IMG/VR virus record: IMGVR_UViG_3300025000_000012
Span: 1-62,969 of that record
Source: a virus
Reading direction: 5' to 3' (one strand)
Length of the DNA: 62,969 bases
Shown in pieces: positions 4,979 through 40,426 of this stretch (positions are counted from its first letter, which is position 1; each line of letters begins with the position of its first letter). Below the pieces are notes generated by a model. It worked only from the letters and a program-made list of their open reading frames with translations. It was not told where the DNA came from and made no database searches. The position numbers and the translations under genes are program-made.

Positions 4979-6736
4979 ATGAATATAATAGCTCCAGAAA
5001 GACCTCGTAGATTAATGACCAATGGTCGTGGATCCGGGGTCTATAATGGTTTACGTAAAGTTGGCGGTTATCCATCCGACCTGCTCTACTACTACTCCCT
5101 CTCGCCGACAGTCACAGACGCCAACGCCCTCCGCCCACGCAAGGGTGACCCACTCACTTACAGTGAGACCGCAGACACCCCAGACCGTGACGGCGTAGAC
5201 TCCCCCGGACCGCATGTCTATTTCAGCCCTGAAGGTTATCTCTGGGGCATCGGAGGGCAGGTTGTGGCAGGGCAGGAAATCAGCAAGGTAATGACGGATG
5301 CGGAGTTGGCTGCGCTTGGCTCCGGTATTTATACACAGTTTATTCCACACTCTGAGCCAAGTTTGTTGGTGCAGTTTTCGTCTCAGATCGGCATTTCTAT
5401 TGCGGCGTCTGCTGGAGAGATGGCAGCGCTTGCGGAAAACGTGATTGTTTTTGGGGACAATTCCACTCAAAGGCTGGCGTATCAGGACATAGACAACGTG
5501 TCAACATCCCAGATTATCTCTGCATACGTGTCAATGGATGACGGGAACGCGCCAGTTATCGGGAGTTCTATATCGACAGGGGATTTTTCCCTTGTAGCAA
5601 ACTCAACAATACTTGCTATCGGCGTAACTATAACGCACGTCTCAGGGAGTATTTACCGTGTGTCAGCAACCCGGGCAGCTACTGGAGTCGGGGCTAAATT
5701 CGGCATTGCTAAATATGTAGGGCAATCTGCGCGGTCGTTTAAAATCACCAGGATCAACGTCACACGTACCGGAAGTTTGGAAGAGTATGTTAAAACGATT
5801 GGTGTGGCAGCGACCGGCGGCAAAGCAGTGATGACGGTATCCTGCCTGATCGTTCCAGGGTTCAACGGCGCAGATCTTCCTGACAATACGTTCAATATCC
5901 CTGTGATGGCAGCAAACGGAGTTGCAGGGTATGTGCCTATAGGTATGGCCAAATCAGGGTCAAGCATGACCGTGGTATCCAGCGATGGCGTGTCCTTCGC
6001 AAGCATGGCAGCATCTGTCAATGACGGCGAACCTCTCCTTGTCTGCATGAGGACGAGTGCTGACGGGACACAGTTTCAGGTCGGCTCAAGGCTCTACAAT
6101 CCTGATATGTCACCTGACGATGCGTCCATAGTTTGGGGAAGTCTGACAACCTCTGACGGCCAGTTTGACCCGATTGAGAGTTTTCAGATATTCCTCGACA
6201 CGCTACATGAAACCTACGTGCGGATGATTCAGATCTGGAACAAATCATGCACGGATGCTGAGATACTGAAATATGTGCCTGGGGTGCAGGAGGTTGAATT
6301 TCCAACTGAGGACCTTGTGGCTGCATTTTGGGTCGCAAACAATTTGGTTGATAGTATCGGCTTATTGAGCATTACCATGACAACCGGAACGATTGCAGAT
6401 TTGCCGAATGCAACGTGGGGCTTCCCTTCCGATGCGGCCACACTACAAGCTGACTCAGACCTCGGAGGTGATGCCTTCTTCGACTCAGCTAATGCGATGG
6501 CTCCGATAGTCAGGTCAGGCGCTGAGTGGTACGCGCTGCTCAACGAGACACACGTCTGGATTGGGTTTCATCTGACGAGAGGCGGGATTGTTATCTATAC
6601 GAACAGCATGGCAGCTAAAGAGACTCAGATACTGAATTACCTTGGACGGTATTCTCCCGTTGTGAGCTTCAACGAGCTGACAGAAGAACAATTCAATGCG
6701 CTGACAGAAGAACAATTCAATAATCTGAGTATTTGA
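4979..6736 (+). CDS. Putative tail fibre / receptor-binding protein (585 aa)
   Basis: AAGGAG at 4969-4974 before the ATG. Long ORF in a visibly GC-richer block. C-terminal tandem LTEEQFNxL repeat (24-bp period, 6677-6721). Function inferred from position only. Confidence 0.6.
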   Translation: MNIIAPERPRRLMTNGRGSGVYNGLRKVGGYPSDLLYYYSLSPTVTDANALRPRKGDPLTYSETADTPDRDGVDSPGPHVYFSPEGYLWGIGGQVVAGQEISKVMTDAELAALGSGIYTQFIPHSEPSLLVQFSSQIGISIAASAGEMAALAENVIVFGDNSTQRLAYQDIDNVSTSQIISAYVSMDDGNAPVIGSSISTGDFSLVANSTILAIGVTITHVSGSIYRVSATRAATGVGAKFGIAKYVGQSARSFKITRINVTRTGSLEEYVKTIGVAATGGKAVMTVSCLIVPGFNGADLPDNTFNIPVMAANGVAGYVPIGMAKSGSSMTVVSSDGVSFASMAASVNDGEPLLVCMRTSADGTQFQVGSRLYNPDMSPDDASIVWGSLTTSDGQFDPIESFQIFLDTLHETYVRMIQIWNKSCTDAEILKYVPGVQEVEFPTEDLVAAFWVANNLVDSIGLLSITMTTGTIADLPNATWGFPSDAATLQADSDLGGDAFFDSANAMAPIVRSGAEWYALLNETHVWIGFHLTRGGIVIYTNSMAAKETQILNYLGRYSPVVSFNELTEEQFNALTEEQFNNLSI

Positions 6737-23160: not shown

Positions 23161-23435
23161 ATCTTTTTCTCCGGCTTATTAGAAATTTCCATCCCATGTT
23201 GAAGTGCTTCAATATATACCACGCAGAAAACTTTCCATAATGGATGTATTTGAATATGCTTGTCTACTTGTGGTCCTACTAATTTCCATACTTCTTCCAT
23301 GTGAATTTCATCCGGGATTTTATCCCATGAATTAATTGGATAATGAGGTACTTTACATGGGCCTATATTTACATGGGTACCTTCTAAAGCTTTTTTCTGA
23401 GCTTTTTGATCTTTATCAAAGCCTAGCTTATTCAT
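23157..23435 (-). CDS. Hypothetical protein (92 aa)
   Basis: ATGA overlap with the upstream gene. No motif recognised. Confidence 0.6.
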   Translation of the reverse strand: MNKLGFDKDQKAQKKALEGTHVNIGPCKVPHYPINSWDKIPDEIHMEEVWKLVGPQVDKHIQIHPLWKVFCVVYIEALQHGMEISNKPEKKI

Positions 23436-23959
23436 ATCTTTCCCTCTCGTTTAAGTCTAAACCAGATTAACGCCAGACTGTTCCAGCAAATCGCAACATC
23501 GTGTGGCATACCAGACTCTGGGTCAATGTTAAACCGGCCCTCGTTAATATGTCGCCAAAAGCCGTCGAGGTACCGTTGCTCTGCGTCCTCAACAAGCATC
23601 CATGACCCTCGGTTATACTTGCCGAAAGGCTTGTTATTCATAGACCCGAGCTTGGCCACCTCTTTAAGTGCGGGTAGAAAATCCTCAAGGACTCCGGCCA
23701 TATACTTACCCTGGTCGAGCTTGTTTTCGTCAGGCGGCATAAAGTCTTTATATGTGTCGTCAAGAGCTGGAAAAATTTTATTAACCGTAGTAGGTTCGGT
23801 ACGCGTAGTATTACAGAATATACAGACATACTGATATTTTTTATTAACGCAGTTATACCTGTACCTGAATATTGCTTTAGGGTTATCGCAGCCCGCGCAG
23901 AAGCCAACAATATCTTCTGTACAAGACTGGTGTGGTAGCTTTTGTACTAGAGGTGGCAT
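23432..23959 (-). CDS. All-alpha NTP pyrophosphohydrolase of the phage dATP/dGTP diphosphohydrolase (DUF5664-like) type with an N-terminal zinc ribbon (175 aa)
   Basis: KLDQGK...FGKYNRGSWM...YLDGFWRHINEG...DPESGMPHDVAICWNSLALIW resembles that family as I recall it. N-terminal CAGC...CIFC. Confidence 0.6.
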   Translation of the reverse strand: MPPLVQKLPHQSCTEDIVGFCAGCDNPKAIFRYRYNCVNKKYQYVCIFCNTTRTEPTTVNKIFPALDDTYKDFMPPDENKLDQGKYMAGVLEDFLPALKEVAKLGSMNNKPFGKYNRGSWMLVEDAEQRYLDGFWRHINEGRFNIDPESGMPHDVAICWNSLALIWFRLKREGKI

Positions 23960-23963
23960 ATTT

Positions 23964-23984
23964 CTCCTTTCTAAAAGTGTATAT
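23964..23984 (-). promoter_or_regulatory. Solo copy of the TACACTTTnAGAAAGGAG motif, directly upstream of the 23959 start codon
   Basis: Minus-strand reading is ATATACACTTTTAGAAAGGAGAAATATG. Same motif as at 18842-18863, 14471-14490, 41314-41332 and 41506-41530. Confidence 0.6.
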
Positions 23985-23995
23985 TTATTGCCATG

Positions 23996-24022
23996 AAAAA
24001 GGACCCTACTCTCGCAGGGCCC
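23996..24022 (-). terminator. Rho-independent terminator after the SSB gene
   Basis: Minus strand reads GGGCCCU-gcgagagu-AGGGUCC (7-bp stem with one G-U pair) followed by UUUUU. Confidence 0.6.
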
Positions 24023-24058
24023 TTCTTATTACGGGATATTACATCAGCTGTGGGCTAC

Positions 24059-24622
24059 TTAGAACGGTACGTCTTCTCCAAAACCACCCTGTGACAGGGC
24101 TTCGGGTTCTGTGAATCCTGCGAACGCATCCTCAGCCTTCTGACGACCGTCGAGGCGCTCACCTTCACGCACGAGCATGACATTGTTGAGACCCCAGCCG
24201 ACGCCGTGGTTGCCGCTATTTGAGTAGGGATACGGATTAACATCAGCGCGGACGTAACAGCCGGCGTAGATGGCACCCTGGTCAAAGAGGGGCTTAGCAT
24301 CCGGGCCTACAACACCAGGAGCAGTATTGGCAGCACAGTTGAGAAAGTAATGGCCCTCGTACTCTTTGGAAGTTTTTTCACCAGATGCTAGCTCAGCATC
24401 ACCGTCGCGCAGAGGTTCGTAACGAAACTTAGGAACCTTGCCCTTCCAAAGCTTTTCTTTGCCCTGCTCGATGGCCTTATCAACGGCTTTTTTAACGGCC
24501 TCAACACCAGCTACATCCGACTTAGGAATAAGGAGGGAGCAGGAGTACTTCAAGGCGCCTGAAGGGTTGGCTTTCGGTTCAAAAAGAGCGGGAAAAGAAA
24601 TTCTACATACACTTGTGATCAT
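24059..24622 (-). CDS. DUF2815-type phage single-stranded DNA-binding protein (187 aa)
   Basis: N-terminus RISFPALFEPKA... and an acidic C-terminal tail GGFGEDVPF. Sits in the classic DUF2800/DUF2815/PolA module. Confidence 0.7.
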   Translation of the reverse strand: MITSVCRISFPALFEPKANPSGALKYSCSLLIPKSDVAGVEAVKKAVDKAIEQGKEKLWKGKVPKFRYEPLRDGDAELASGEKTSKEYEGHYFLNCAANTAPGVVGPDAKPLFDQGAIYAGCYVRADVNPYPYSNSGNHGVGWGLNNVMLVREGERLDGRQKAEDAFAGFTEPEALSQGGFGEDVPF

Positions 24623-24642
24623 GATTAGTCCTTGTAATGAAG

Positions 24643-24671
24643 ATTATTAACGTTGTTGTCCTAGTAGTAAA
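24643..24671 (-). promoter_or_regulatory. Weaker sigma70-type promoter candidate (TTTACT-N17-AATAAT)
   Basis: -35 TTTACT (24671-24666), -10 AATAAT/TAATAA (24648-24643). About 20 nt upstream of the SSB start. Confidence 0.4.
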
Positions 24672-24732
24672 AAGATGCTGCACCCCTGCGAGGGACTCAT
24701 GTCCGGCATTTCGGGGTTTAATCCACACAGGA

Positions 24733-25137
24733 TTAAGAGGTGATAGTGGTGGCTAACGCCGGTGTCGATGCTTTCGTATCAGGAAATACCTCCTTATGTT
24801 CACCACTGGCCATACGCTTCAGGTTGTTCGCTAAGACCCATTCAAAGCGGGCCTGAAGGTCAAATGCGTCAAAGTCAAAACACTTAGCGATGTTGATTAA
24901 AAAGAAAAAACAGTCTATAATCTCGCGGCTTATATTATCCCGATCTATAGACCCCGTTTTCCATGAAGCAAATGGCCAGGAGGAGGCAAGTTCGCCGACT
25001 TCTACACTAAGAGCTAAGACACACTCATTAGCGTACTGTAGCTTCTTTTCTGGTGTTAAGTCTTGAAACACAACACCCCGAAGGTTAGCTTGTGCTACAA
25101 CTTGGCCCATCATTTTATAGAGTGTAAGCTCATTCAT
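24733..25137 (-). CDS. MazG / dimeric-dUTPase-like all-alpha NTP pyrophosphohydrolase (134 aa)
   Basis: LSVEVGELASS (ExxE) and REIIDCFFFLINIA (E..D) helices. Confidence 0.6.
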   Translation of the reverse strand: MNELTLYKMMGQVVAQANLRGVVFQDLTPEKKLQYANECVLALSVEVGELASSWPFASWKTGSIDRDNISREIIDCFFFLINIAKCFDFDAFDLQARFEWVLANNLKRMASGEHKEVFPDTKASTPALATTITS

Positions 25138-25949
25138 TATACCACCGGAGTCTTTGAGTAAAAACCGGCTGCGCCTTTATGTCCACCTCCGCCGTATTTA
25201 ATAGCGACAGTAGATACATCGATGTCAGGTTTTACAGAGTAAATTGAGTACTTAAATTCACCCGGCTTGACACCAAATAGGACCATAGCGTCATGCTTCT
25301 CCGGGTCATAGACGGAGTCGAAGATTTTGGAGTTCGCGTAGGCTTTATTAATAACGACGACACGCAAGCCCTCGAGCACCGCGTCGTATGCCATACCCTG
25401 TGCATACATAGCATTCTGCTTATCTTCGTACTTAATAATTGTCTTGCCGAGTTCAATGATTTCAGCAATACAATGATTCTTATCTTCAAAAATATCGGTC
25501 CAGATATTACTGTTTGGCCGAGTATCCTCAAAGGTTCGCATGCCATACTGAAACGGTAAAGTACGAGGATCAGAATGATCCCAGACGTCATACCGACCGA
25601 GCAAATGAACCGCGAGATTAGCGTTCTGGCTATTTACTAAATAGTCCCAGGTAAGCTCGCAACCCGCGCGGCCTATTTCACGAATACCTTTTACGTTTCT
25701 CAGCGCTTCAAGCTTCTCGATAGCGGTCTTATGGTGGTCAAGCCAATGGAGCTCAGAATGATCTGCTAAGAACGCCATGTCTTCTGGAGAGAATGAAAAA
25801 TCAACAACAAAAGTAATATCGCTGACCTTAGCGCGGTCTACGGTATCTAGGTAGTTTACGCCGATCATTTCACATGTCGGGAAGTATTGCTTTACTATAG
25901 CCCCCGAGCAATGACCATCGAGGTCTGACTTATGGTAAAAGCATTGCAT
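25137..25949 (-). CDS. DHH/DHHA1-family phosphoesterase (about 270 aa)
   Basis: HKSDLDGH (DxD), WLDHHKT (DHH), GGGHKGAAGF (DHHA1 GGGH). The start is probably ATG 25949 (GAGAGG 6 nt upstream); the ORF track gives GTG 25985. Confidence 0.85.
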   Translation of the reverse strand: MQCFYHKSDLDGHCSGAIVKQYFPTCEMIGVNYLDTVDRAKVSDITFVVDFSFSPEDMAFLADHSELHWLDHHKTAIEKLEALRNVKGIREIGRAGCELTWDYLVNSQNANLAVHLLGRYDVWDHSDPRTLPFQYGMRTFEDTRPNSNIWTDIFEDKNHCIAEIIELGKTIIKYEDKQNAMYAQGMAYDAVLEGLRVVVINKAYANSKIFDSVYDPEKHDAMVLFGVKPGEFKYSIYSVKPDIDVSTVAIKYGGGGHKGAAGFYSKTPVV

Positions 25950-25959
25950 AGTAGACCTC

Positions 25960-26631
25960 TCAGGGATTCCAGGATTGAGCTTCACATTGCAAGAAGCCTT
26001 GTTTGCAAGTATCCATGTAGCACTGAGGCCCTACATGGCAAAACAACTCAGGAAAATGCCCGTGTACCAGTGATAGTACCCGCTCAGCAAACACCTGCAT
26101 CTCGTCTACATTACGATTACAGGTACGCTGGCGCAAGAAGAACATGAGGTTACGGGCATCTATGGTCCATAAATAATTAACCGCAGCAGCGTTAGGTAAA
26201 ACCTGACGGGCTTCTTCCCGAGGAACATTGAGCTTAAGCAGATCACCGTATGCTTTGTATGTAGCATCTAAGGCGCTCTGCATTATAATTTGTGCAGTGG
26301 GCGATACATTGCCGGTGACGCATGGGTAGTCTGAGTAATCTTGGTAGTGCTGAGACCCACTTGTCGGGGACCCAGTTCGTTGACGGGTGATTTGTGCGAG
26401 AAATGACCTTGATACACCCTGGATAAGGAACGTATAAACTACGTGCTCGAACAAGGATGTGTGTTCGGCGTTGATTAAGAACTTAGCTTTTGCGGCGGTG
26501 AACTTTGGAATCTCCGCATCTGCTTGGGCATTCATGGTAATACTCTGAGCAAGAGCAACCATCTCCGCTGGATAAGGAGTTGCTTGCATGAGCTCGATAC
26601 TCATTTTGTCGTACGACTGGACGTTTGGCAT
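25960..26631 (-). CDS. thyX: Flavin-dependent thymidylate synthase ThyX homologue with an atypical signature (223 aa)
   Basis: EHTSLFEHVVYTFLIQGVSRSFLAQITRQRTGSPTSGSQHY aligns to the ThyX RHRxxSxxxxSxRY signature, but reads RQR...S....SQHY. Start re-set to ATG 26631 (AGGAGG 7 nt upstream). Confidence 0.75.
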   Translation of the reverse strand: MPNVQSYDKMSIELMQATPYPAEMVALAQSITMNAQADAEIPKFTAAKAKFLINAEHTSLFEHVVYTFLIQGVSRSFLAQITRQRTGSPTSGSQHYQDYSDYPCVTGNVSPTAQIIMQSALDATYKAYGDLLKLNVPREEARQVLPNAAAVNYLWTIDARNLMFFLRQRTCNRNVDEMQVFAERVLSLVHGHFPELFCHVGPQCYMDTCKQGFLQCEAQSWNP

Positions 26632-26650
26632 TCTACTTCCTCCTACTAGG

Positions 26651-26684
26651 AAAACCCCTTTCACGATTGCTCGCGAAAGGGGTT
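26651..26684 (-). terminator. Rho-independent terminator
   Basis: Minus strand reads ACCCCUUUC-gcgagcaaucgu-GAAAGGGGU followed by UUUCC. Lies between the wHTH gene and thyX. Confidence 0.6.
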
Positions 26685-31640: not shown

Positions 31641-31847
31641 CTATACCATTGCCTTGATGTAGTCAAACAGGCCGTCGATCTGCTTGTCAGAGTCTGCAGA
31701 AGAGATGACCTTAGTCGACATCTTCGCTGCTCCGGTATCTGATATAGATGTATGGGTTAATATTATATCGTCGCCCTTTGTGGCAGAGGCGGCAATTGTG
31801 AGTTGTACCTTAAGAAGACCATTATACTTGATGTCGAGTTGGATCAT
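31641..31847 (-). CDS. Hypothetical protein (68 aa)
   Basis: ATGA overlap with the upstream gene. Confidence 0.55.
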   Translation of the reverse strand: MIQLDIKYNGLLKVQLTIAASATKGDDIILTHTSISDTGAAKMSTKVISSADSDKQIDGLFDYIKAMV

Positions 31848-32047
31848 TTGTACACCTCACCGAGATACTTGAGAGCACAGTCGCCCTCGCCTTTAGCAAT
31901 CCAGCGCCACATCATACACTCAGGTCCTATACACCCTGGATGAGAATATTGTTTATTAACAGGATCGTGTTCAAAGTTAGTACCATAGTTGCCTCGATGA
32001 TGCGGACACCACTTGGTTCTTGCTTTATCTTCAGTCATCATCTGCAT
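31844..32047 (-). CDS. Cys/His-rich small protein (67 aa)
   Basis: WCPHH...HPGCIGPECMMW...GDC. Confidence 0.55.
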   Translation of the reverse strand: MQMMTEDKARTKWCPHHRGNYGTNFEHDPVNKQYSHPGCIGPECMMWRWIAKGEGDCALKYLGEVYK

Positions 32048-32271
32048 ACCTCCTCAATAGGTAGCTGTACAGTAGCGATATACTCTACACGGACACTCTC
32101 GCTACAGTGGACCATATACTTATACTTCTGGACAACAGGTTGCGGTGTCTTTGGTAACTCCCATACATAGTAACCTGCGATAAGGCATACCACAAATATA
32201 GCTAAGAAAAGGCTGAGCATCTTGCTATCTCCAGAGTTGGAAGAGGTTGTGCGCTTTGTCATCATAGCCAT
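32038..32271 (-). CDS. Single-TM small membrane protein (77 aa)
   Basis: MLSLFLAIFVVCLIAGYYVW helix. Confidence 0.55.
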   Translation of the reverse strand: MAMMTKRTTSSNSGDSKMLSLFLAIFVVCLIAGYYVWELPKTPQPVVQKYKYMVHCSESVRVEYIATVQLPIEEVCR

Positions 32272-32470
32272 CTTGAACTCCTATTAATATTTTGAGGGAA
32301 TAACCATTGTCTATACCGAAGTCTGTGACCAGAGAGAGTGCTCGAGTATTATGCTCGTAGGCCCCGATAGAGTCTGACATAAAGTCATACCATATACCAG
32401 AGACCCCATCGAGTTGTGTTAATATCTCGAAGACCTCTTTGGTTCGATTCATATTAGCTTGCTGACCCAT
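32225..32470 (-). CDS. Hypothetical protein (81 aa)
   Basis: ORF with AAGGAGAG upstream of the ATG. Confidence 0.55.
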   Translation of the reverse strand: MGQQANMNRTKEVFEILTQLDGVSGIWYDFMSDSIGAYEHNTRALSLVTDFGIDNGYSLKILIGVQDGYDDKAHNLFQLWR

Positions 32471-32484
32471 GAGCTCTCCTTATA

Positions 32485-32784
32485 TCAGGTTCTTACGACC
32501 ACAGTGTTTACAGAAGTAACTCTTTGCCGCGCGGTTTCGGTACGTGTACATTTTCTGTAAAATACATCACGCCACTCTTGATCAATTGCAGGGTCGGCGC
32601 CTCTGATGTACTCTTTAACATAGACCATGCGGGTATGCTCGATTGAAAGAGCTTTGGCTTTATCCATCGTGGCCCGCTTATCCTTGGATATAAATAAAGG
32701 ACTCCACGTGCCGATCGGGGTCTTGAAACAGGCCATCCATTTTCTCCCATCCCAGTTTTCTACAGGAGGTGCTTTCTTCATCAT
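32485..32784 (-). CDS. Hypothetical protein (99 aa)
   Basis: ATGA overlap with the upstream gene. Confidence 0.55.
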   Translation of the reverse strand: MMKKAPPVENWDGRKWMACFKTPIGTWSPLFISKDKRATMDKAKALSIEHTRMVYVKEYIRGADPAIDQEWRDVFYRKCTRTETARQRVTSVNTVVVRT

Positions 32785-33122
32785 AGCTTCACCCAGCCTT
32801 CGATACGCGCGATGATAGCGATACGCATATAGTTAATAGGAAGATTCTTTATGGGATACTTTTTAAATGACAGACGAATAAGTATCTCCGCTTCAGGGCT
32901 GACAACGTGACAGAGAGTGCCCGCGTTGTTGACGTACGCGACCCAGCGTAACACCGTGTTATTGCACTTGTCGTCAAGACTTGACCGTAGGTCATACGGA
33001 AATATAACGGCGATACCTGATCCTGGTTTTCTAGGGGTTGGCATCAGCTCATCCTTAATGAAGCGAGTAAATCTCGAAGGCTCCATCTCTTTAAACTGCG
33101 ACTTAGTTAGTCTTCTCTTCAT
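32781..33122 (-). CDS. Hypothetical protein (113 aa)
   Basis: ORF in operon context with GAGGA upstream. Confidence 0.55.
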   Translation of the reverse strand: MKRRLTKSQFKEMEPSRFTRFIKDELMPTPRKPGSGIAVIFPYDLRSSLDDKCNNTVLRWVAYVNNAGTLCHVVSPEAEILIRLSFKKYPIKNLPINYMRIAIIARIEGWVKL

Positions 33123-33150
33123 AGTCCTCGTAGTCCTTGTTTTAGTTGAT

Positions 33151-33456
33151 TTAAAGCTCTGGTCCTGCTTTCCAGTCAGCTATAACTTTATGACCGATGT
33201 ACATAAGCTTCTGAAGTAACTCGCCCGCCGGGTAGTTGACTGCATAACGCGTGTCACCCTTTTCAAGCTGAAAGAAAGTAGCTCGCGCAGAGTCAAGCTT
33301 AAAGTCACTTATAGCGCCGTACTTAGTGTGCTTAATCCGTATGTAGAAACATTCTTTGTCTTCTGTGCCGACTTTAATATCTTTACAGTCTCGAGGATTA
33401 AGATACTTATCAACGATCTTAGCGATTTGCTCCGGTGTTGCTTGTACACAATACAT
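33151..33456 (-). CDS. Hypothetical protein (101 aa)
   Basis: ATG 2 nt after the upstream stop, with GAGGGAG upstream. Confidence 0.55.
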   Translation of the reverse strand: MYCVQATPEQIAKIVDKYLNPRDCKDIKVGTEDKECFYIRIKHTKYGAISDFKLDSARATFFQLEKGDTRYAVNYPAGELLQKLMYIGHKVIADWKAGPEL

Positions 33457-33458
33457 GT

Positions 33459-33683
33459 TTATTCTCCCTCGCCTGGATAAATTGGTGGTCTGCCGGGACT
33501 CATCGGAATATGGGGATTAAAGCCTCGGCGCTGCCGTTCATAAATGCGATGTACTACACCACAGTCATTACAAAACGTATGACCCGCCTCAGTAGGACCT
33601 TGACATGCTACGCAGAGTCCTTTAGCCTTTAACTCAGCCCGTTTAGCTCGGGCCTTTGCACGTCGTTCTAATATCTTCTGCAC
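33459..33683 (-). CDS. Zinc-ribbon protein (74 aa), paralogue of 30416..30796
   Basis: GTG start with AAGGAG 6 nt upstream. CVAC...CNDC plus the RxRRGxNP tail. Confidence 0.6.
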   Translation of the reverse strand: MQKILERRAKARAKRAELKAKGLCVACQGPTEAGHTFCNDCGVVHRIYERQRRGFNPHIPMSPGRPPIYPGEGE

Positions 33684-33713
33684 ACTTGTCTCCTTGCTCA
33701 GTTGAGATGATAG

Positions 33714-33995
33714 TCAATTAAAGAATCTTGTGTCATCAATAATACAGGGTAACTGCATATCTATTCCTCTGTTCCATTCACCCCACCAACTAGCAAATGC
33801 GTAAGAATTCTCAGTGACCTTAAATATATCTGAGTCAGCTTCGAATATTACGTGAGGTGTAACTTCCATTGTGCCGCTTGATATGCCTCTAAGCAAGAGA
33901 CAGTTGAGTGACCCACAATAGAACAGGTCACCAGTATAAGTGTTGATGACATCTGGATGCACTTGGAACTTTAATCCTGTTTTAACGCATCTCAT
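33714..33995 (-). CDS. Hypothetical protein (93 aa)
   Basis: The ATG overlaps the stop of the unlisted ORF 33992..34141 (ATGA). Confidence 0.55.
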   Translation of the reverse strand: MRCVKTGLKFQVHPDVINTYTGDLFYCGSLNCLLLRGISSGTMEVTPHVIFEADSDIFKVTENSYAFASWWGEWNRGIDMQLPCIIDDTRFFN

Positions 33996-34141
33996 TTTAC
34001 TCTCCTTGTCTTACCACGTTTCTTCCACGCCTGTTTCGCATTAAGCCTACGCGGAGTAGGGTATCTTTTAGACGCTGAAGCCCAGGATGATATATCATAA
34101 AATACATCTGAGCTGAGACGGAACAGTATTTCACGAAGCAT
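33992..34141 (-). CDS. Unlisted basic mini-protein (49 aa) filling an apparent gap
   Basis: TAATG overlap at its start and ATGA overlap at its end. Translates MLREILFRLSSDVFYDISSWASASKRYPTPRRLNAKQAWKKRGKTRRVK. Confidence 0.45.
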   Translation of the reverse strand: MLREILFRLSSDVFYDISSWASASKRYPTPRRLNAKQAWKKRGKTRRVK

Positions 34142-34413
34142 TAGTCTTCCTCCAAGGGACTATAAAGATTAGCATATGGGTTAACGCCAGGTGCATCACT
34201 GTTTTGATCAGACATGCAGCGATTAGCCCTGACATCGTAAGATGGTGGAAACACGGTAGGTACACGGTTCGTGATGTTATCCACCGTCTCAACAGGACCG
34301 ATAGGTTCACCACACCAAGCGCATCCGTGGTACTTATATGTACGGGATACACCTGGCGCTATTACATGCGACCGAAGATACTTAGTTACTGAAGCCGTAT
34401 TGCAGTCACACAT
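34141..34413 (-). CDS. Cys-rich small protein (90 aa)
   Basis: MCDC...HGCAWCGEP. Overlaps the end of the CXX-repeat gene by 8 nt. Confidence 0.55.
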   Translation of the reverse strand: MCDCNTASVTKYLRSHVIAPGVSRTYKYHGCAWCGEPIGPVETVDNITNRVPTVFPPSYDVRANRCMSDQNSDAPGVNPYANLYSPLEED

Positions 34414-35077
34414 AGAGTTTCTCCTGAACGATTAAGTATTCAATGGTGCTGATATAAATCATATATTGATCAAAGAATTTGGTGCCTAAGTGTCTCTGGG
34501 TAACAGCTTCACGAAACTGATTCAAATCACCTCGGAAGCATCCGCAAACTACTTGAACAAGACCCTTTGACCAGTATGTTGTGACGTCTGCATTTCGGCT
34601 TCCGATAGATTGTTTAAGATACCTTGCGGGGTTCTCTTTGAAGTCTGTGCAGTCCGTGCAGTCCGTGCAGTCCGTGCAGTACCTGCAGTTCGTGCAGTCT
34701 GTGCAGTCCGTGCAGTACCTGCAGTTCGTGCAGTTCTCGCAGTCCGTGCAGTCCATGCAGTACCTGCAGTTCGTGCAGTTCTCGCAGTCCGTGCAGTCCA
34801 TGCAGTCCATGCAGTCCATGCAGTTCGTGCAGTTCGTGCAGTTCATGCAGTCCGTGCAGTTCATGCAGTCCGTGCAGTCCGTGCAGTCCGTGCAGTCCGT
34901 GCAGTTCGTGCAGTTCTCGCAGTCCGTGCAGTCCATGCAGTTCGTGCAGTTCGTGCAGTCCGTGCAGTCCGTGCAGTTCATGTTATCCATCTTACAGGCT
35001 TGTTTATCTGCGAGCTCTTGAGACTTATAACTTACGCCAGTATTGCCTTTTTCTGATTTAGCGGATTCATATCTCAT
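34406..35077 (-). CDS. Protein with 37 consecutive Cys-X-X triplets plus a non-repetitive C-terminal domain (223 aa)
   Basis: [24 protein letters not shown]...[15 protein letters not shown], then [54 protein letters not shown]-type coupling to the upstream gene. Confidence 0.75.
34643..34975. repeat. 333-bp tract of 37 tandem 9-bp units (gtgcagtcc-like)
   Basis: Units gca-gt[ct]-c[ga]t and similar. Higher-order 45-bp repeats ([15 protein letters not shown] twice). The tract lacks stops in several frames, which creates spurious plus-strand ORFs. Confidence 0.95.
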
Positions 35078-35301
35078 TATTCGTCCTCCTTAGGAAAGCA
35101 GTCATCACAGATGCCAGTGATGAGGAGCTCGCGCTCTCTGGCCGGGACTTTAGGCATTGCGCGCTGAATCATTGCACCACGCTGCCACACCATATACTGG
35201 TCATAGTCAACAGTTACTTTGTTCAACGCTCGGCAGAATGGACACAGCGTGGTGATAGTAACTGTGTTATCTATGTCAGATCTTTTTATGCTTGTAATCA
35301 T
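35077..35301 (-). CDS. Zinc-binding small protein (74 aa)
   Basis: CPFC...GICDDCF pairs. Confidence 0.6.
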   Translation of the reverse strand: MITSIKRSDIDNTVTITTLCPFCRALNKVTVDYDQYMVWQRGAMIQRAMPKVPARERELLITGICDDCFPKEDE

Positions 35302-35313
35302 TATTCATCTCCT

Positions 35314-35706
35314 TCAACTTAAGGTTCCGCATTTTCTGCAGTAATAGCCAAACTCGTCAAGATTAAATCTGGCTTGGTCTCTAATACTCTTCAGGTGAAA
35401 GTCTACTTGATTATGAATGAACTCATTTGTACGGCACTTAGGACAGCATAAGCCGAAGGTCGTGTTGACCAGTGTGGAGCTTGTGACTTGGCCCTCTGTT
35501 ATGTCTATAGAGGTTAATGTCCGAAGTTTATCTTCATCAAGCTTCGTGAACCATACGACCACACGAGTCTTGAATCCATCTTCAGTCGTGACTGCATCTC
35601 GTCGCTTGACAAGATAGCCTGCTCGATTCAGACGATCAGACCAATATACTAAGGGTTGCTTTTTCTGTCTCTCAAATGATATTATTCTCACTTTAGCCTC
35701 CACCAT
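35314..35706 (-). CDS. Hypothetical protein with a C-terminal zinc ribbon (130 aa)
   Basis: CCPKC...YYCRKCG. GGTGGAGG upstream. First gene after the 35.7-kb promoter. Confidence 0.6.
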   Translation of the reverse strand: MVEAKVRIISFERQKKQPLVYWSDRLNRAGYLVKRRDAVTTEDGFKTRVVVWFTKLDEDKLRTLTSIDITEGQVTSSTLVNTTFGLCCPKCRTNEFIHNQVDFHLKSIRDQARFNLDEFGYYCRKCGTLS

Positions 35707-35745
35707 AATTAATTTATTATAGACTGTATTTCTTCTTTATAATTA

Positions 35746-35774
35746 ATTATAAACTAATTAGTCACCAAAGTAAA
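35746..35774 (-). promoter_or_regulatory. sigma70-type promoter TTTACT-N17-TATAAT
   Basis: -35 at 35774-35769, -10 at 35751-35746. Confidence 0.65.
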
Positions 35775-35857
35775 TACTTTCTTTTCCAAAAGTGAAATTG
35801 GTGTAGGCTGGAAATAACAATGGCCACACTAAGAGTAGCATGGCCAGGTGATAGTAT

Positions 35858-36286
35858 TTATGATTTTAGTGGCGGCATCCAATAATAGACACAGCCTCGC
35901 GTATACTGAGCCGGTATATCAGGAGGTAGACCCTCTGGTCTTGGCCAGAAAGAGAACACGTTTTTAAGGTCTCTCGACACCTTGTCATTGCCACTAGGGC
36001 TATTACGAGGAATACCTAGAGCTCTTCGAATATCAGCGGCCGTCATCTTTTGCCATTGATCAAGAGGCGCTGCGGTGTCGAAGATACTCTCAATTTGCGT
36101 GATATACTTAGTAACTGCGGGCATATCAAGTTTAGCGTCTTGACGGTCAAGGTATTTGTCAATAAATTTCCGTAAGGCTTTAGCGAAGTCTTCATCAGTC
36201 TGAGGATCATTAATTACTTTAAGCGTGTACGCTATAGATTTATATAGCCGCGGCGTAATACAATTATAGATATTTGGAGTAGTCAT
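35858..36286 (-). CDS. Stand-alone paralogue of the primase C-terminal domain (142 aa)
   Basis: IFDTAAPLDQWQKMTAADIRRALGIP...YYWMPP aligns with FFDTTAPIDQWTKLTLRDVRALIGLG...FYWVPP at the C-terminus of 36289..38592. Confidence 0.7.
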   Translation of the reverse strand: MTTPNIYNCITPRLYKSIAYTLKVINDPQTDEDFAKALRKFIDKYLDRQDAKLDMPAVTKYITQIESIFDTAAPLDQWQKMTAADIRRALGIPRNSPSGNDKVSRDLKNVFSFWPRPEGLPPDIPAQYTRGCVYYWMPPLKS

Positions 36287-36288
36287 AG

Positions 36289-38592
36289 TTATTGAACCTG
36301 AGTTGAGGGTTGATGAGTGTCAAACATAAGAGCGCCGACCGGAGTCTGAGTACCTCTGGATGGGGGTACCCAGTAGAACGTACGTGATCTAGCATGTGCG
36401 CCCTTCTCAGGCGGAGGAGTATGCGGCAGTTGTCCGAGCCACGCTAGGAATGTCTGCTTGAACAGACGCTGTGATAGTGAGTTGCCACCTGATTTACGTG
36501 TCTCACCACCCAGCCCAATAAGCGCGCGTACATCACGTAATGTAAGCTTAGTCCATTGGTCAATAGGCGCAGTGGTGTCAAAGAAATCATCTAAGTCATC
36601 GGCTACCGCTTCATCGGCCATGAGTCTTGCTCGCGCGTTGATGTAGTCACGGTCTTGGACGGCTTGAGGATAACGTGTCTCTTCAGTTAGTTGAGAGAAC
36701 CACCACGGCTCACCCGTGACATAGAGATGATGGACCTGAGCCCATAACTGGTCAAGATCAATGTTATGCTTGAAGTTTAGCGAGGCTGTGTGTATAAGTA
36801 GCACGCGTCTATTTTGAGAGTCAGAGAGAAAAGATTGTAGGTTTGTAGACCCAATGAAAGAGGTACGTCTGGTCATCTCCACTTGATGCCGCCCGTAAGG
36901 TAGAACCTTCTTTTCAGTCGTTGCGTCAAGGAATTCCTTGAACTCGGAGAATGTGTTATGGGTGAACAGAGTGTCTATCTCATTGATATTACAGATTAGA
37001 GAGTTGCTGAGCTCCATGGTCAGCTTAGTGCTCTCAGTTTTAAACTTGCCGAGCTTGAGGTCCTTACTCGCGTCACAGTAGTGAATGAGGGCCTTAGGAA
37101 AGAGAGACTGTACCCACTTAGTCTTGCCTATGCCTTGCGAGCCTGTAAAGATAAGGACTTGGTTAAGCATGACTGACTGGTCCTTAGGATCGTGGCACGC
37201 ACCAGCTACGACTTGAATCAGCCATTTTTGTAAAAAGACTTTATATGATGACAAAAAGCGAGTATGAGATGGCATAACCTCGATAGTATTCATGAGAGCC
37301 GTTATGCGGTCTTGCCCATCCCAGGTAAGATTATTAAAGTAATCCTTGATAGGATTTATGAAATTTGTGTTACCAACAGCACCAAGATAATTAAATATGC
37401 GTCGGTCAGTAAAGCTACCAGAGATGGTATTCATCTTTAAGAAGTCTGAGCCAATGAGACTCGTGATTTGATCAAGAGATGCGTTAGAAGTTGGCATACC
37501 CCAGTCTGCTTGCTTAGATGGAGGTATGATTACATCCATCTGCATAAGTAACTCATTGACGACAGGTTTGATACCCGTAAACCTAAGATAAGTGTGAAAA
37601 TTATCAATAGTACCCTTTAACCGACCTTTCTTATCAACGTCAGGATAAGACGGGAATTGAGCATCAGCGAGCTTGATGATAGTCGCGATGGTTATAGGGT
37701 TGTCAGTATTCTTATCATTGAATGAGTGCCACACAGCATCTGCTGAGTCAGGATCGTACTTATTCCCTGATCGAGACCATTCTACCCAGAGAGAGAAGCC
37801 TTTAAGGGACCCGGAGTACTCATGATGAAGTGCTTGACCAATGATTAACCAAGGTGTGCGTGCTTCATCTGTGCAGTTGAGATCAAGAACCGCGGACTCA
37901 CCTTTTGAGACGCGGTCAAAGATATCGTCAGTTAAACATTGTACTGGAAGCCGGTTAAGCAGACTCTTAACATAAGGAATAGCGAGAGGCTCAGTCGACT
38001 TAGAAGACTTGGTAGGTGGAGAGGCTTCAGAGTCTTGCTGCTCTGTTTGGTCAACGTGACGTTGTGTAGTAAATAAGCCTTCAAGTATGCTGAGTAAGGT
38101 TGTAGACTCAATGACTCGGACCGGCAGAGGATTGTCATCCGCGATATTGTTGGTCACTGTAACAAAGCCAGTCGATATAAAGAGATCACGTTTATTGGTA
38201 GTGTTACGCTTACCCTTGCCATATTCAGCGATGATAGTCGCTTTGTCAGTCACTTCGACAACTACATGACAACCCATGCCGCTCGGTGAAACCTCAGTGT
38301 ATGAATCAAGGGACTTGACCAGGGAGAGATTTTCAGGAGTAAATTCGTCGACGTCAATACAGACAAATGGATGATCTTCGGTGTATGCAAAACCTAGGCC
38401 GAGAGTCTTACCGACTCGGAATCGTACATCTTCAAAGGGCAAGAGTTTAGTCGGCCAGTCCTTACCCAGGATAGGTTTCTTTAAAGTTTTATTAGGTATC
38501 TTCGGATGTGGTTGAGGAGACCACAATAGCCAGAAGGGTGCAGATTGTAAAGAAAGCGGAATAGTGCTAGGATCTACTGTGAGGTGTGCCAT
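36289..38592 (-). CDS. Bifunctional prim-pol / VirE(D5)-type P-loop primase-helicase (767 aa)
   Basis: Prim-pol motifs FVCIDVDEF and EVSPSGMGCHVVV. Walker A FTGSQGIGKTKW. Largest early gene. Confidence 0.85.
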   Translation of the reverse strand: MAHLTVDPSTIPLSLQSAPFWLLWSPQPHPKIPNKTLKKPILGKDWPTKLLPFEDVRFRVGKTLGLGFAYTEDHPFVCIDVDEFTPENLSLVKSLDSYTEVSPSGMGCHVVVEVTDKATIIAEYGKGKRNTTNKRDLFISTGFVTVTNNIADDNPLPVRVIESTTLLSILEGLFTTQRHVDQTEQQDSEASPPTKSSKSTEPLAIPYVKSLLNRLPVQCLTDDIFDRVSKGESAVLDLNCTDEARTPWLIIGQALHHEYSGSLKGFSLWVEWSRSGNKYDPDSADAVWHSFNDKNTDNPITIATIIKLADAQFPSYPDVDKKGRLKGTIDNFHTYLRFTGIKPVVNELLMQMDVIIPPSKQADWGMPTSNASLDQITSLIGSDFLKMNTISGSFTDRRIFNYLGAVGNTNFINPIKDYFNNLTWDGQDRITALMNTIEVMPSHTRFLSSYKVFLQKWLIQVVAGACHDPKDQSVMLNQVLIFTGSQGIGKTKWVQSLFPKALIHYCDASKDLKLGKFKTESTKLTMELSNSLICNINEIDTLFTHNTFSEFKEFLDATTEKKVLPYGRHQVEMTRRTSFIGSTNLQSFLSDSQNRRVLLIHTASLNFKHNIDLDQLWAQVHHLYVTGEPWWFSQLTEETRYPQAVQDRDYINARARLMADEAVADDLDDFFDTTAPIDQWTKLTLRDVRALIGLGGETRKSGGNSLSQRLFKQTFLAWLGQLPHTPPPEKGAHARSRTFYWVPPSRGTQTPVGALMFDTHQPSTQVQ

Positions 38593-39756: not shown

Positions 39757-39966
39757 ATGAATATACCTACCTGGTTATTAGCAGAAGTAGATAAACTACG
39801 TGGACAATTTCCAGATATTAATTATACTGATGCAGTACCACTAGAACAAAGCGATATTGAGTTATTTGTAATTCACGTGCATAACGACTTTAAAGAGTAC
39901 ATCATTATACTACGAAACAATACCAACTATGACACTTGGATAGATGTTAAAATTGTCGAAATGTAA
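39757..39966 (+). CDS. Hypothetical early protein (69 aa)
   Basis: GGAG 8 nt before the ATG. Only rightward ORF in the control region, driven by the 39.7-kb promoter. Confidence 0.6.
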   Translation: MNIPTWLLAEVDKLRGQFPDINYTDAVPLEQSDIELFVIHVHNDFKEYIIILRNNTNYDTWIDVKIVEM

Positions 39967-40022
39967 TGTAATGTTACATCATGTAACATCATGTAACATG
40001 ATGTAGCATGATGTAGCATGAT
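39961..40022. repeat. Six tandem 10-bp units, each a near-palindrome ATGT(A/T)ACAT
   Basis: ATGTAATGTA|ATGTTACATC|ATGTAACATC|ATGTAACATG|ATGTAGCATG|ATGTAGCATG|AT. Begins at the stop codon of 39757..39966. Confidence 0.9.
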
Positions 40023-40052
40023 TATAAAGTAAAGCTCTACAGCATCTGGTGT

Positions 40053-40426
40053 AATAATGCTAGGTGCTGTGCTTTATTCATCGGACCCAGTATGACTCTA
40101 CTGGATAATGGAGCTGAGCTCTCCAGCAGCACTATCACGTTGATACTGGAACTTTGGTGTGTTCGCGAAGTTAGTGTGTCACCGCGGTAATCGACACAGC
40201 TAAGCTCTTAGACAAGACTTGCGGGGACTATCATCACCACGTTGCTAGGTTGGGATAATATAATGCTGGGCTCTTCATTAGCACTATCATCCAGTGTGAT
40301 CATACTGGGTGTCATGATTAAGCCGAGCCCTCCAAGAACACTATCATCCAGTATAGTTATTTAATTAAATAGCAATGTAGTTAAATAACTAAATACCTTT
40401 GCAATATTAATAATCACTATCATCAG
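40053..40426. repeat. Iteron-like array: five CACTATCA(T/C)C boxes plus CCAGT-N8-ACTGG palindromes
   Basis: Boxes at 40130, 40226, 40282, 40339 and 40415 (the two central ones are the exact 14-mer CACTATCATCCAGT). ccagtatgactctactgg and ccagtgtgatcatactgg. ATAATGCTrGG...TTCAT leader occurs twice. Confidence 0.8.

Follow-up and report, generated by a model that had tools for sequence, protein, structure and literature searches.

A 37-triplet Cys-x-x array in a phage early-region protein and the modular family to which it belongs

Introduction

In the beetle antifreeze protein TmAFP of Tenebrio molitor (1EZG, PF02420), the inward residues of the 12-residue beta-helix are C2, S5, C8, and A11, one at every third position (PMC8038014). 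Cys-bearing triplets are also found in heterocycloanthracin, where the number of Cys-Xaa-Xaa units differs between strains through in-frame indels (Haft 2009, PMC2674419). Such TOMM precursors, which include sonorensin, measure up to about 90 aa, consist of a leader and a C-terminal core, and depend on cyclodehydratase, dehydrogenase, and scaffold genes. Metallothioneins are approximately one third Cys, carry small polar residues in between, and have no hydrophobic core; they are <10 kDa, lack folded flanks, and space their Cys irregularly, with CxC and CC motifs. The pentapeptide DNA mimics MfpA, Qnr, and AlbG are rod-like repeats with an acidic surface, built on an A(D/N)LXX motif with a period of five. 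A last group, the phage solenoid proteins of phrog_7964 and phrog_20532 (Bobb AII27939.1, phiRM10 gp34), carry hexapeptide/YdcK left-handed beta-helices or pentapeptide arrays with hydrophobic cores, and are products of accessory or early-region genes with no assigned function. Here we compare these systems with a phage protein containing 37 consecutive Cys-x-x triplets.

Results

The Cys-array gene and its expression signals

The window is the whole 62,969-nt stretch of IMG/VR record IMGVR_UViG_3300025000_000012. The ORF table places an ATG-initiated ORF of 223 aa on its minus strand at 34406-35077, and the encoded protein has a mass of 25.4 kDa, a pI of 4.3, and 40 Cys in total. The features of the locus are as follows:

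34406-35077, minus strand: complete ORF with TGA stop at 34406-34408, supported by homologues and phrog_15341
34976-35077, minus strand: N-terminal cap (type B), residues 1-34, with predicted short strands and a helix at 20-32
34643-34975, minus strand: Cys-x-x array, residues 35-145, 37 triplets of C-[TMER]-[DNY] encoded by a 9-bp tandem repeat
34409-34642, minus strand: C-terminal "CGCF" domain, residues 146-223, with four predicted strands and two helices
35085-35091, minus strand: Shine-Dalgarno sequence AAGGAGG, 7 nt 5' of the ATG, read from the sequence
35077-35079, minus strand: TAA stop of the upstream 74-aa ORF, sharing one base with the ATG (TAATG)
34406-34413, minus strand: 8-nt overlap ATGTGTGA with the start of the downstream 90-aa ORF (34141-34413)
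35746-35774, minus strand: sigma-70-like promoter match TTTACT-17-TATAAT, 10/12, a consensus match only
35821-35846: terminator-like hairpin ahead of the promoter match

The promoter match heads a string of genes (130-aa, 74-aa, Cys-array, and 90-aa), and the 8-nt overlap indicates that this string is translationally coupled. With a strong ribosome-binding site, coupling to both neighbors, and at least 150 homologues, the ORF looks like a genuine protein-coding gene. The N-terminus is hydrophilic and without a signal peptide; judged by its sequence, the protein would be cytoplasmic.

The phage is a novel tailed one of ~63 kb, and the gene is an accessory component of its replication/early arm. 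The first-pass annotation had set it among anti-host-type mini-proteins, a label for which the neighboring genes, having no assigned function, give no backing. A close relative of this phage was not found, the primase-helicase reaching 25% identity at best and the portal about 30%, and no gene neighbors common to the window and other family loci were identified.

A homogenized 9-bp repeat encodes the array

The first-pass annotation had claimed 37 unbroken C-[TMER]-[DNY] triplets, which proved exact, and a nested 15-aa repeat, which occurs twice in tandem as described. The triplets comprise CTD (16), CTN (8), CMD (5), CEN (3), CRY (3), and CMN (2). At the DNA level, the unit is TGCACGGAC together with single-base variants. 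Tandem Repeats Finder reports 37.3 copies of period 9 at 34642-34977 (85% matches, 0 indels), and no other tandem repeat in the window comes close to its score of 434, the runner-up reaching 108. The tract is built from only seven distinct 9-mers; every one of its 37 Cys codons is TGC, and ACG, which is the Thr codon used least in the rest of the phage, encodes 22 of its 24 Thr. This combination excludes chance and identifies the tract as a homogenized DNA repeat.

The array is 33% Cys, spaced exclusively as CxxC, and carries a net charge of -21 over 111 aa (pI 4.05). It contains no Gly, and its exclusion from the collagens, which need Gly at every third residue, is upheld. The same is true of the pentapeptide repeats, given a period of three and no Pfam pentapeptide match at E<=10.

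A modular family with a conserved array of labile length

Residues 19-128, within the N-terminal cap and the array, match phrog_15341 (E=7.5e-32), which has no assigned function, and the at least 150 homologues were recovered at E<=1e-3. Members consist of a small N-terminal cap, an array of 3 to >50 triplets, and a variable C-terminal domain, with at least three N-terminal and five C-terminal types flanking the array. An array is found in essentially every member, whether of phage, giant-virus, or fungal origin; the loci are both viral and cellular, and some contigs carry 2-4 paralogues.

Across 179 arrays (2,959 triplets), Cys is invariant and Pro accounts for about 0.1%. The first variable position is mostly T/S/R/I/V (T 33%, S 13%, R 13%) and the second mostly D/N/G/Y (D 31%, N 24%, G 12%, Y 11%); a super-period was looked for in the family arrays and none was seen. 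Lengths in the 179 arrays run from 3 to 41 triplets with neither parity preference nor quantization. Older arrays maintain Cys through synonymous TGC/TGT variation. A universal preference for TGC, suggested by four arrays, was rejected on a set of 26, where 15 are TGC-majority and 11 TGT-majority and the majority codon tracks GC content.

The tract had also been described as slippage-prone and possibly variable in length. Homologue pairs with 100% identical flanks support this, with 14 vs 6, 21 vs 11, 21 vs 8, and 14 vs 10 triplets and clean indels within the array, showing a conserved array of labile length. In such sequence comparisons, both the length of the array and its surface residues prove to change very rapidly, through slippage in frame or through recombination. 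The notion of a recent, non-conserved expansion holds in its first half only: the window array itself is young and homogenized, whereas the array as such is conserved family-wide.

When positions 33000-37000 were compared by megablast with 50,697 phage records, no match appeared; tblastn was equally negative for the first 34 aa and, with the complete protein as query, returned only four weak C-terminal matches because the array is masked. Pfam, NCBIfam, and PADLOC returned nothing on the Cys-array protein or its neighbors. The family was not found in the literature on phage CXXCXX repeats, cysteine-rich beta-solenoids, or phage pentapeptide and anti-defence proteins. In generic DNA-pattern scans of viral and genome collections, genuine members were outnumbered by uninformative simple sequence read in other frames.

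The C-terminal domain follows bona fide beta-solenoids in other phage proteins

The type B N-terminus of the window protein is shared with family members P0030, P0042-44, P0046, P0051-54, P0174, and others. The C-terminal region, initially described as an ordinary domain of 75 aa, is confirmed as a conserved domain of ~78 aa, with the motif NPxRY..IGSR..YW..(C)GCFxG..F located behind the repeat array. The domain matches phrog_20532 (E=2.5e-12) and phrog_7964 (E=1.1e-6), and profile searching with it, as the first-pass annotation had suggested, recovered 2,635 protein clusters (at 50% identity) in an exhaustive search with the domain profile (A1). No Pfam relative was found with the protein or the C-terminal alignment, and the PDB, searched by sequence with the domain profile, yielded no match under E=0.3. 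The exhaustive search replaced a word-indexed search with the domain alone, which had found one protein.

The repeats that precede this domain in thousands of phage proteins include pentapeptide (PF00805), YdcK solenoid (PF18836), Hexapep, and bactofilin-like repeats; in Bacillus phage Bobb and Ruminococcus phage phiRM10 gp34, the domain sits behind hexapeptide repeats. BFVD Foldseek matches at E<=1e-3 are chiefly phage beta-solenoid proteins. Also in that set are two viral proteins that are Cys-rich or misnamed, and a single fragment of the C-terminal domain. The first-pass statement that a similar domain follows pentapeptide repeats in phage proteins is borne out both by these matches and by P0239, which combines the domain with pentapeptide repeats (PF00805, E=7.6e-24). 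An hhalign comparison of C-terminal types 1 and 2 gave a probability of 1.3%, and a common origin of the differing C-terminal domains is thus not established.

Structure prediction and the beetle antifreeze alignment

AlphaFold (AF2), proposed as a check in the first-pass annotation, gives a divided answer. Both caps are modeled with confidence (pLDDT ~93 for the N-terminal cap and 92-97 for the "CGCF" domain), whereas confidence on the array is low, 46-70 in one run and 50-64 in a second, independent one, with an isolated beta-bridge at every third array residue. An antifreeze-like solenoid had been suggested for the array. In its favor, phmmer aligns the array with TmAFP (1EZG, E=5.8e-6, with large compositional bias) such that array Cys fall on the C,S,C,A columns and each third, inward position is small or Cys. 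Against it are the low array pLDDT and a Foldseek search of the PDB that gave no match below E=0.8 and did not retrieve 1EZG. PF02420 scores 13.4 bits (E=0.1) against a 36.5-bit cutoff, short of the Pfam gathering score. The right-handed beetle antifreeze beta-helix, with its coil of 12 residues, is the best analogue of the array.

An antifreeze function itself was rejected: the second variable position is D/N/Y and never T, hence there is no TCT ice-binding strand, and a secretion signal is lacking. A "LIM" match of the full protein to 9e5c was discarded as spurious, the match being to a 3-periodic T/A/E repeat without Cys.

Discussion

The explanation that we put forward, tentatively and as a whole somewhat short of an even chance, is that of an accessory gene from a modular family of cap, Cys-x-x array, and C-terminal domain, whose array forms a solenoid rod. 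Its structural component is about evenly balanced. By analogy with the swapped repeats, the array would take the structural place of a beta-solenoid ahead of the shared C-terminal domain, folding into a very thin rod like that of the beetle antifreeze protein with every third residue pointing inward. Cys would occupy each of the four inward positions in a coil, and ~9 coils would yield a rod of ~44 Å, assuming a coil of 12 aa per 4.8 Å. In the reducing cytoplasm, the Cys column would be held probably by bound metal and not by disulfides. A strict coil of 12 residues between two fixed caps might favor arrays in multiples of four triplets, and the absence of any such preference in array length counts against it.

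The role of such a rod is more doubtful. It may be a hypervariable binding surface and spacer that would display the C-terminal domain to a target in the host at an early stage of infection. With similar reserve, the acidic rod of the window phage could be a polyanionic, nucleic-acid-like decoy that would lure a host DNA-binding or defence protein. Net charge across family arrays ranges from -0.79 to +0.44 per triplet, and the acidic decoy therefore cannot be a general mechanism of the family. No conserved gene neighborhood, defence/anti-defence annotation, or literature links the family to a host target. A bolder proposal, which we regard as doubtful too, is that the array represents a new architecture, a minimal beta-solenoid whose whole core would be an unbroken column of cysteines, four to the coil, threaded by a metal ladder or wire, and which phages and giant viruses would use as a scaffold, rapidly variable in length and surface, for engaging host factors. 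Anti-defence decoys are an example of such use.

Other explanations read the same features differently. The array could lack a regular fold and act as a metallothionein-like sponge, its thiolate clusters sequestering or buffering metal (Zn/Cu/Cd/Fe) or redox equivalents while the caps solubilize it. Its high content of Cys, the sole invariant residue, would suit this role, as would its unconstrained length, the cytoplasmic location without a signal peptide, the CxxC-type, zinc-ribbon-like character of adjoining ORFs, and the failure of AF2, which models no metals, to fold it. We consider a sponge unlikely, since the strict residue preferences (first position beta-branched or polar, second D/N/G/Y, Pro excluded) point to a single backbone conformation that recurs along the array, CxC and CC motifs are absent, and bona fide beta-solenoids are interchangeable with the array before the same C-terminal domain. 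Hypervariable surface residues in near-identical genes would also be unneeded for a simple sponge. Low AF2 confidence could equally reflect an unstructured, hypermutable linker, a tolerated simple-sequence expansion between two small domains in which Cys has no specific role. Wide length variation agrees with this reading, and homogenized 9-bp units with an otherwise rare Thr codon indicate recent amplification at the DNA level. The retention of every third Cys in hundreds of independent arrays, including old ones of mixed TGC/TGT codons, together with the exclusion of Pro and the near-universal presence of the array in so broad a family, renders a linker improbable.

The charge of the window array bears on a further possibility raised by the first-pass annotation, an acidic rod that imitates B-DNA and inhibits a host restriction/defence nuclease or gyrase, like pentapeptide-repeat proteins and Ocr. 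A charge of -21 over the predicted ~44 Å amounts to about -0.47 e/Å, compared with -0.59 e/Å for B-DNA; the C-terminal domain is common to phage pentapeptide-repeat proteins, and the gene adjoins replication genes. This proposal fits the window array (-21/111 aa) and fails for the family, where the mean is -0.17 per triplet and, among 178 arrays, 7% are equally acidic and 14% net positive. A TmAFP-like rod would moreover be far thinner than DNA, and homology to known DNA mimics, a PADLOC match, and a literature link are all missing, leaving DNA mimicry rather unlikely. A RiPP precursor of the heterocycloanthracin/sonorensin kind, with Cys-x-x units converted to thiazol(in)es, is suggested by the strain-variable Cys-Xaa-Xaa repeats that typify those peptides (Haft 2009, PMC2674419) and by family member P0107, which scores 25 bits against TIGR03601, below the cutoff of 35. 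It is very improbable here: the window protein has no NCBIfam match even at E<=10, its array counts 37 units where heterocycloanthracin has about 13 Cys, and the folded 78-aa domain behind the array means that the latter is not a C-terminal core peptide. Cyclodehydratase, dehydrogenase, and scaffold genes were not found among the subset of window ORFs scanned. Least probable of all is a DNA-level element in which the 37 x 9-bp repeat serves as iterons or an origin and the reading frame is incidental. The rank of the tandem repeat within the window, its position 1.3 kb downstream of the primase-helicase gene, and two open frames on the other strand would allow this. What is conserved, however, is the protein, its Cys codons remaining fixed while x codons and the DNA unit differ between phages; family genes occupy unrelated genomic positions, the flanks encode confidently folded domains, and the intergenic region 39961-40022 holds a better iteron-like candidate.

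Both the Cys-array family and the C-terminal domain are common in phage genomes, and neither has a Pfam entry, a solved structure, or an assigned function; AlphaFold provides no usable model for the array. A solenoid with a Cys core, perhaps laddered by metal, would, if real, constitute a new structural class and an attractive tunable nanorod scaffold. Arrays that are hypervariable in otherwise identical genes, together with several paralogues in some phages, suggest an arms-race interface, whose target could point to a new way of taking over the host or countering its defences. There is also a lesson for annotation, in that Cys-x-x arrays are masked as low complexity, frameshift-prone in assemblies, and mislabelled, for example as "CaiB/BaiF" or "TNFR-Cys".

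Returning to the described systems, the phage consensus C-[TS]-[DNG] corresponds to the CT[NGD] and Sx[DNH] triplets of TmAFP, whose repeat number likewise varies, in that case between isoforms. Unlike TmAFP, the phage array has Cys at all four inward positions and no 12-residue super-period, and the protein is cytoplasmic with additional N- and C-terminal domains. With the phrog_7964/phrog_20532 proteins it shares a homologous "CGCF" domain after the repeats and a similar genomic setting, while its Cys-x-x repeats and N-terminal cap differ from theirs. It has the Cys content of metallothioneins, but a strict period of three, first- and second-position preferences, CxxC spacing only, and two folded domains in a 25-kDa protein set it apart from their clusters. 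With heterocycloanthracin and sonorensin it has in common a variable number of Cys-x-x units, in a protein of a different size and layout. Finally, the window protein resembles MfpA, Qnr, and AlbG in its presumed rod-like repeat and acidic surface, and differs from them in its period of three, the absence of their motif, and a charge that is not conserved in its family.

The array gene

The Cys-x-x protein is encoded on the minus strand, downstream of a promoter-like sequence.

34406-35077, minus strand: ORF of 223 aa (ORF table of the window)
35774-35746, minus strand: sigma-70-like promoter match ahead of a four-gene string, a consensus match only

The ORF is a genuine gene on several grounds: a Shine-Dalgarno sequence (AAGGAGG) can be read in the window 7 nt 5' of its ATG, the stop of the upstream 74-aa ORF shares a base with that ATG (TAATG), its own stop region overlaps the start of the next ORF by 8 nt, its strand carries every gene between ~14.6 and 40.8 kb, and the promoter-like match lies upstream. 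A terminator-like hairpin precedes this putative promoter.

Residues 35-145 (window 34643-34975) form 37 unbroken triplets: CTD (16), CTN (8), CMD (5), CEN (3), CRY (3) and CMN (2). Tandem Repeats Finder reports period 9, 37.3 copies, 85% matches and no indels, with a score of 434 that is four times that of the next best tandem repeat in the window. The ORF and 37 triplets described in the first-pass annotation are thus accurate to the base. Just seven 9-mers, all a few base substitutions away from TGCACGGAC, make up the tract. Every Cys codon is TGC (37/37), against 35 TGT to 29 TGC in other sampled genes of the phage, and Thr is encoded by ACG in 22 of 24 cases, elsewhere the rarest Thr codon of the phage (81/523). 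These 9-mers and codons mark the window array as a young DNA amplification that has been homogenised.

A catalogued family with hypervariable arrays

The window protein belongs to a phage family that is catalogued in PHROGs (phrog_15341, E=7.5e-32, function unknown) but wholly uncharacterised. At least 150 homologues were matched among 5.8 billion proteins searched, those listed being all unnamed or 'hypothetical'. Members share a plan of a ~35-aa N-terminal cap, a Cys-x-x array and a C-terminal domain, with at least three cap types (the window protein has the 'MRYESAKxxKGNxGVSYxSQ' type) and at least five different C-terminal domains. Pattern scans recovered genuine members from many phage contigs of IMG/VR and from bacterial and archaeal genome bins (e.g., Helicobacter bilis, Erysipelotrichales, Nanohalarchaeota). 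Some viral contigs (L039, IMG/VR 3300037172_000055; L088; L067; L037) carry 2-4 paralogues with the same cap and different arrays and tails, which indicates local gene-family expansion. Loci vary, lying between a 492-aa ORF and the portal gene (DUF4055), beside ERF/DnaB or in a nucleotide-metabolism arm, and the window has no gene neighbours in common with the other family loci compared.

Related arrays occur in lichen-fungus proteins and one Mimiviridae protein. The lichen-fungus proteins (P0055, P0059 and P0060; Physcia stellaris and relatives) have a presequence-like N-terminus; their arrays, like those of the bacterial or viral P0085 and P0117, end in a common 'C.GL(T/I).A.G.KGV' motif and not in phage C-terminal domains. 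Two BFVD entries with 26-33% identity to the Cys-x-x protein, H6SUK4 (Campylobacter virus IBB35, 'CaiB/BaiF family protein') and A0A5B8IEK9 (Mimiviridae sp. ChoanoV1, 'TNFR-Cys domain-containing protein'), are probably misnamed members. In P0151 (L247, an ENA ERZ2641571 contig of 905 bp, 472-870), an apparent 'TAxTAx' repeat is a Cys-x-x array in the wrong frame; frame 2 encodes a normal cap and CxxCxx array, and a frameshift then leads to the C-terminal domain. P0221 resembles it, and arrays are frameshift-prone in low-coverage assemblies.

Array statistics were taken from 179 arrays (2,959 triplets); the search was built so that Cys does not vary in them. The x1 position holds T (33%), S (13%), R (13%) and I/V (11%), the x2 position D (31%), N (24%), G (12%) and Y (11%), and Pro accounts for ~0.1% at either. 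Since residues show no autocorrelation at lags of 1-10 triplets, the true unit is three residues. In the protein set, arrays have 3 to 41 triplets, and one viral locus (L060) reaches 53; neither odd or even numbers nor any class modulo 4 is favoured. In older arrays both TGC and TGT occur (e.g., 13:22), and Cys is therefore kept by selection on the protein. Among homologues whose flanks on both sides of the array are 100% identical, clean internal indels separate arrays of 14 and 6, 21 and 11, 21 and 8, and 14 and 10 triplets, and P0054 and P0058, with flanks 100% and 95% identical, have arrays of equal length with scrambled x residues. The array is thus conserved as a feature, and its length and surface are hypervariable. 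The refuting case named in the first-pass annotation, a recent, non-conserved expansion, does not apply: the tract is no one-off event, although the window copy is recent.

The C-terminal domain and the fold of the array

An exhaustive search of 1.84 billion representatives with a 41-sequence profile of the C-terminal (CGCF) domain recovered 2,635 clusters at E<=1e-3, of which 592 reach E<=1e-10. The domain stands alone, behind Cys-x-x arrays or behind other repeats: YdcK-type solenoid (PF18836, 5.8e-14), Hexapep, bactofilin-like and pentapeptide repeats (PF00805, 7.6e-24), the last bearing out the remark in the first-pass annotation that a similar domain comes after pentapeptide-repeat regions in some phage proteins. 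Cultured carriers are Bacillus phage Bobb (AII27939.1) and Ruminococcus phage phiRM10 (gp34); Pfam, NCBIfam and PDB sequences contain no relatives. Because the domain follows beta-solenoid repeats elsewhere, the array would appear to occupy the structural slot of a beta-solenoid.

AlphaFold was run on the window protein (58 sequences) and a 16-triplet homologue (59 sequences). The CGCF domain (four strands and two helices) is modelled at pLDDT 92-97 and caps are confident in both runs; the arrays reach 46-70 and 50-64, respectively, and in these low-pLDDT regions DSSP assigns an isolated beta-bridge every third residue. Foldseek found no significant match in the PDB and nine in BFVD at E<=1e-3, mostly phage beta-solenoid proteins; it retrieved no solved solenoid for the array.

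The only meaningful PDB sequence match to the array, under strong compositional bias, is the beetle antifreeze protein TmAFP (1EZG, E=5.8e-6), whose C, S, C and A columns align with successive array Cys. TmAFP side chains alternate out-in-out-out-in, with inward C2, S5, C8 and A11 around a C2-C8 disulfide (PMC8038014). Inward residues thus recur at every third position, the Cys spacing of the array, and the TmAFP triplets CT[N/G/D] and Sx[D/N/H] match the phage consensus. For these reasons the best structural model would be a thin beta-helix like that of TmAFP, with only Cys in its core, about 9.25 coils and a length of about 44 A; we give it an even chance. A cytoplasmic location of the protein would favour metal bridges in this putative core over a reduced or a disulfide-bonded state.

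Genome context

The window looks like a complete ~63-kb tailed-phage genome with two arms, one structural (terminase, portal, major head protein) and one for replication (primase-helicase, exonuclease, split PolA, ligase, helicase, ThyX, Enc34-type SSB, VRR-NUC). The phage has no close cultured relative and no Megablast match; its portal shares ~30% identity with the portals of Bcep22- and PBC5-like phages.

309-4490, plus strand: structural-arm ORF of 1393 aa, TTG start
4979-6736, plus strand: structural-arm ORF of 585 aa
20875-21819, minus strand: family A DNA polymerase ORF, 314 aa
21816-22958, minus strand: family A DNA polymerase ORF, 380 aa
23432-23959, minus strand: MazZ-like dATP/dGTP diphosphohydrolase N-terminal domain (PF18909)
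25137-25985, minus strand: DHH phosphoesterase
25960-26664, minus strand: ThyX
39961-40022: 10-bp unit ATGTAACATG x5.2 (alternatively 20-bp unit x3), in the ORF-poor region between the divergent arms
40038-40071: hairpin of 15 pairs

Neither large structural-arm ORF has a PHROG match at E<=1e-5. Both polymerase ORFs match Pfam DNA_pol_A and phrog_17; they adjoin and overlap, the gene being either split or frameshifted. The nucleotide-metabolism cluster (23432-26664) may point to remodelling of the dNTP pool or to base modification, and the repeat at 39961-40022 is a candidate for an operator or a set of origin iterons. For the small ORFs flanking the array gene, PHROG, Pfam and PADLOC gave no function. 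Paired, zinc-ribbon-like CxxC motifs occur in small minus-strand neighbours within 31844-35706 (35077-35301, 35314-35706, 33459-33683, 34141-34413 and 31844-32047), among which the sole PHROG match is that of the 74-aa ORF (35077-35301) to phrog_20898, of unknown function.

Possible functions

No defence or anti-defence models, conserved neighbours or literature tying the family to a known activity were found. The first-pass observation is confirmed and its interpretation in part supported. Its DNA-mimicking rod agrees with the acidity of the window array (charge -21, pI 4.05, among the most acidic 7% of 178 arrays), whose linear charge density would approach that of DNA. Family-wide the idea does not hold: with 14% of arrays net positive and a mean of -0.17 per triplet, DNA mimicry could be no more than a local specialisation. 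A metallothionein-like sponge, a disordered linker and a DNA-level iteron array were also considered. A RiPP precursor deserves mention, as Cys-Xaa-Xaa repeats that vary between strains are the defining trait of heterocycloanthracin precursors (Haft 2009, PMC2674419) and one array-family relative has a sub-threshold TIGR03601 match; the window protein itself, however, lacks this match and carries a folded domain behind its array, and maturation enzymes are absent among the window ORFs scanned.

The features combined would be best fitted by a putative host-interaction scaffold under diversifying pressure: surface and length are hypervariable, a phage can carry multiple paralogues, caps and C-terminal domains are shuffled, and the genes occupy early or accessory positions. 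The window protein is structurally intriguing and experimentally tractable; it is a variant of beta-solenoid or Cys-repeat proteins and not a categorically new system.
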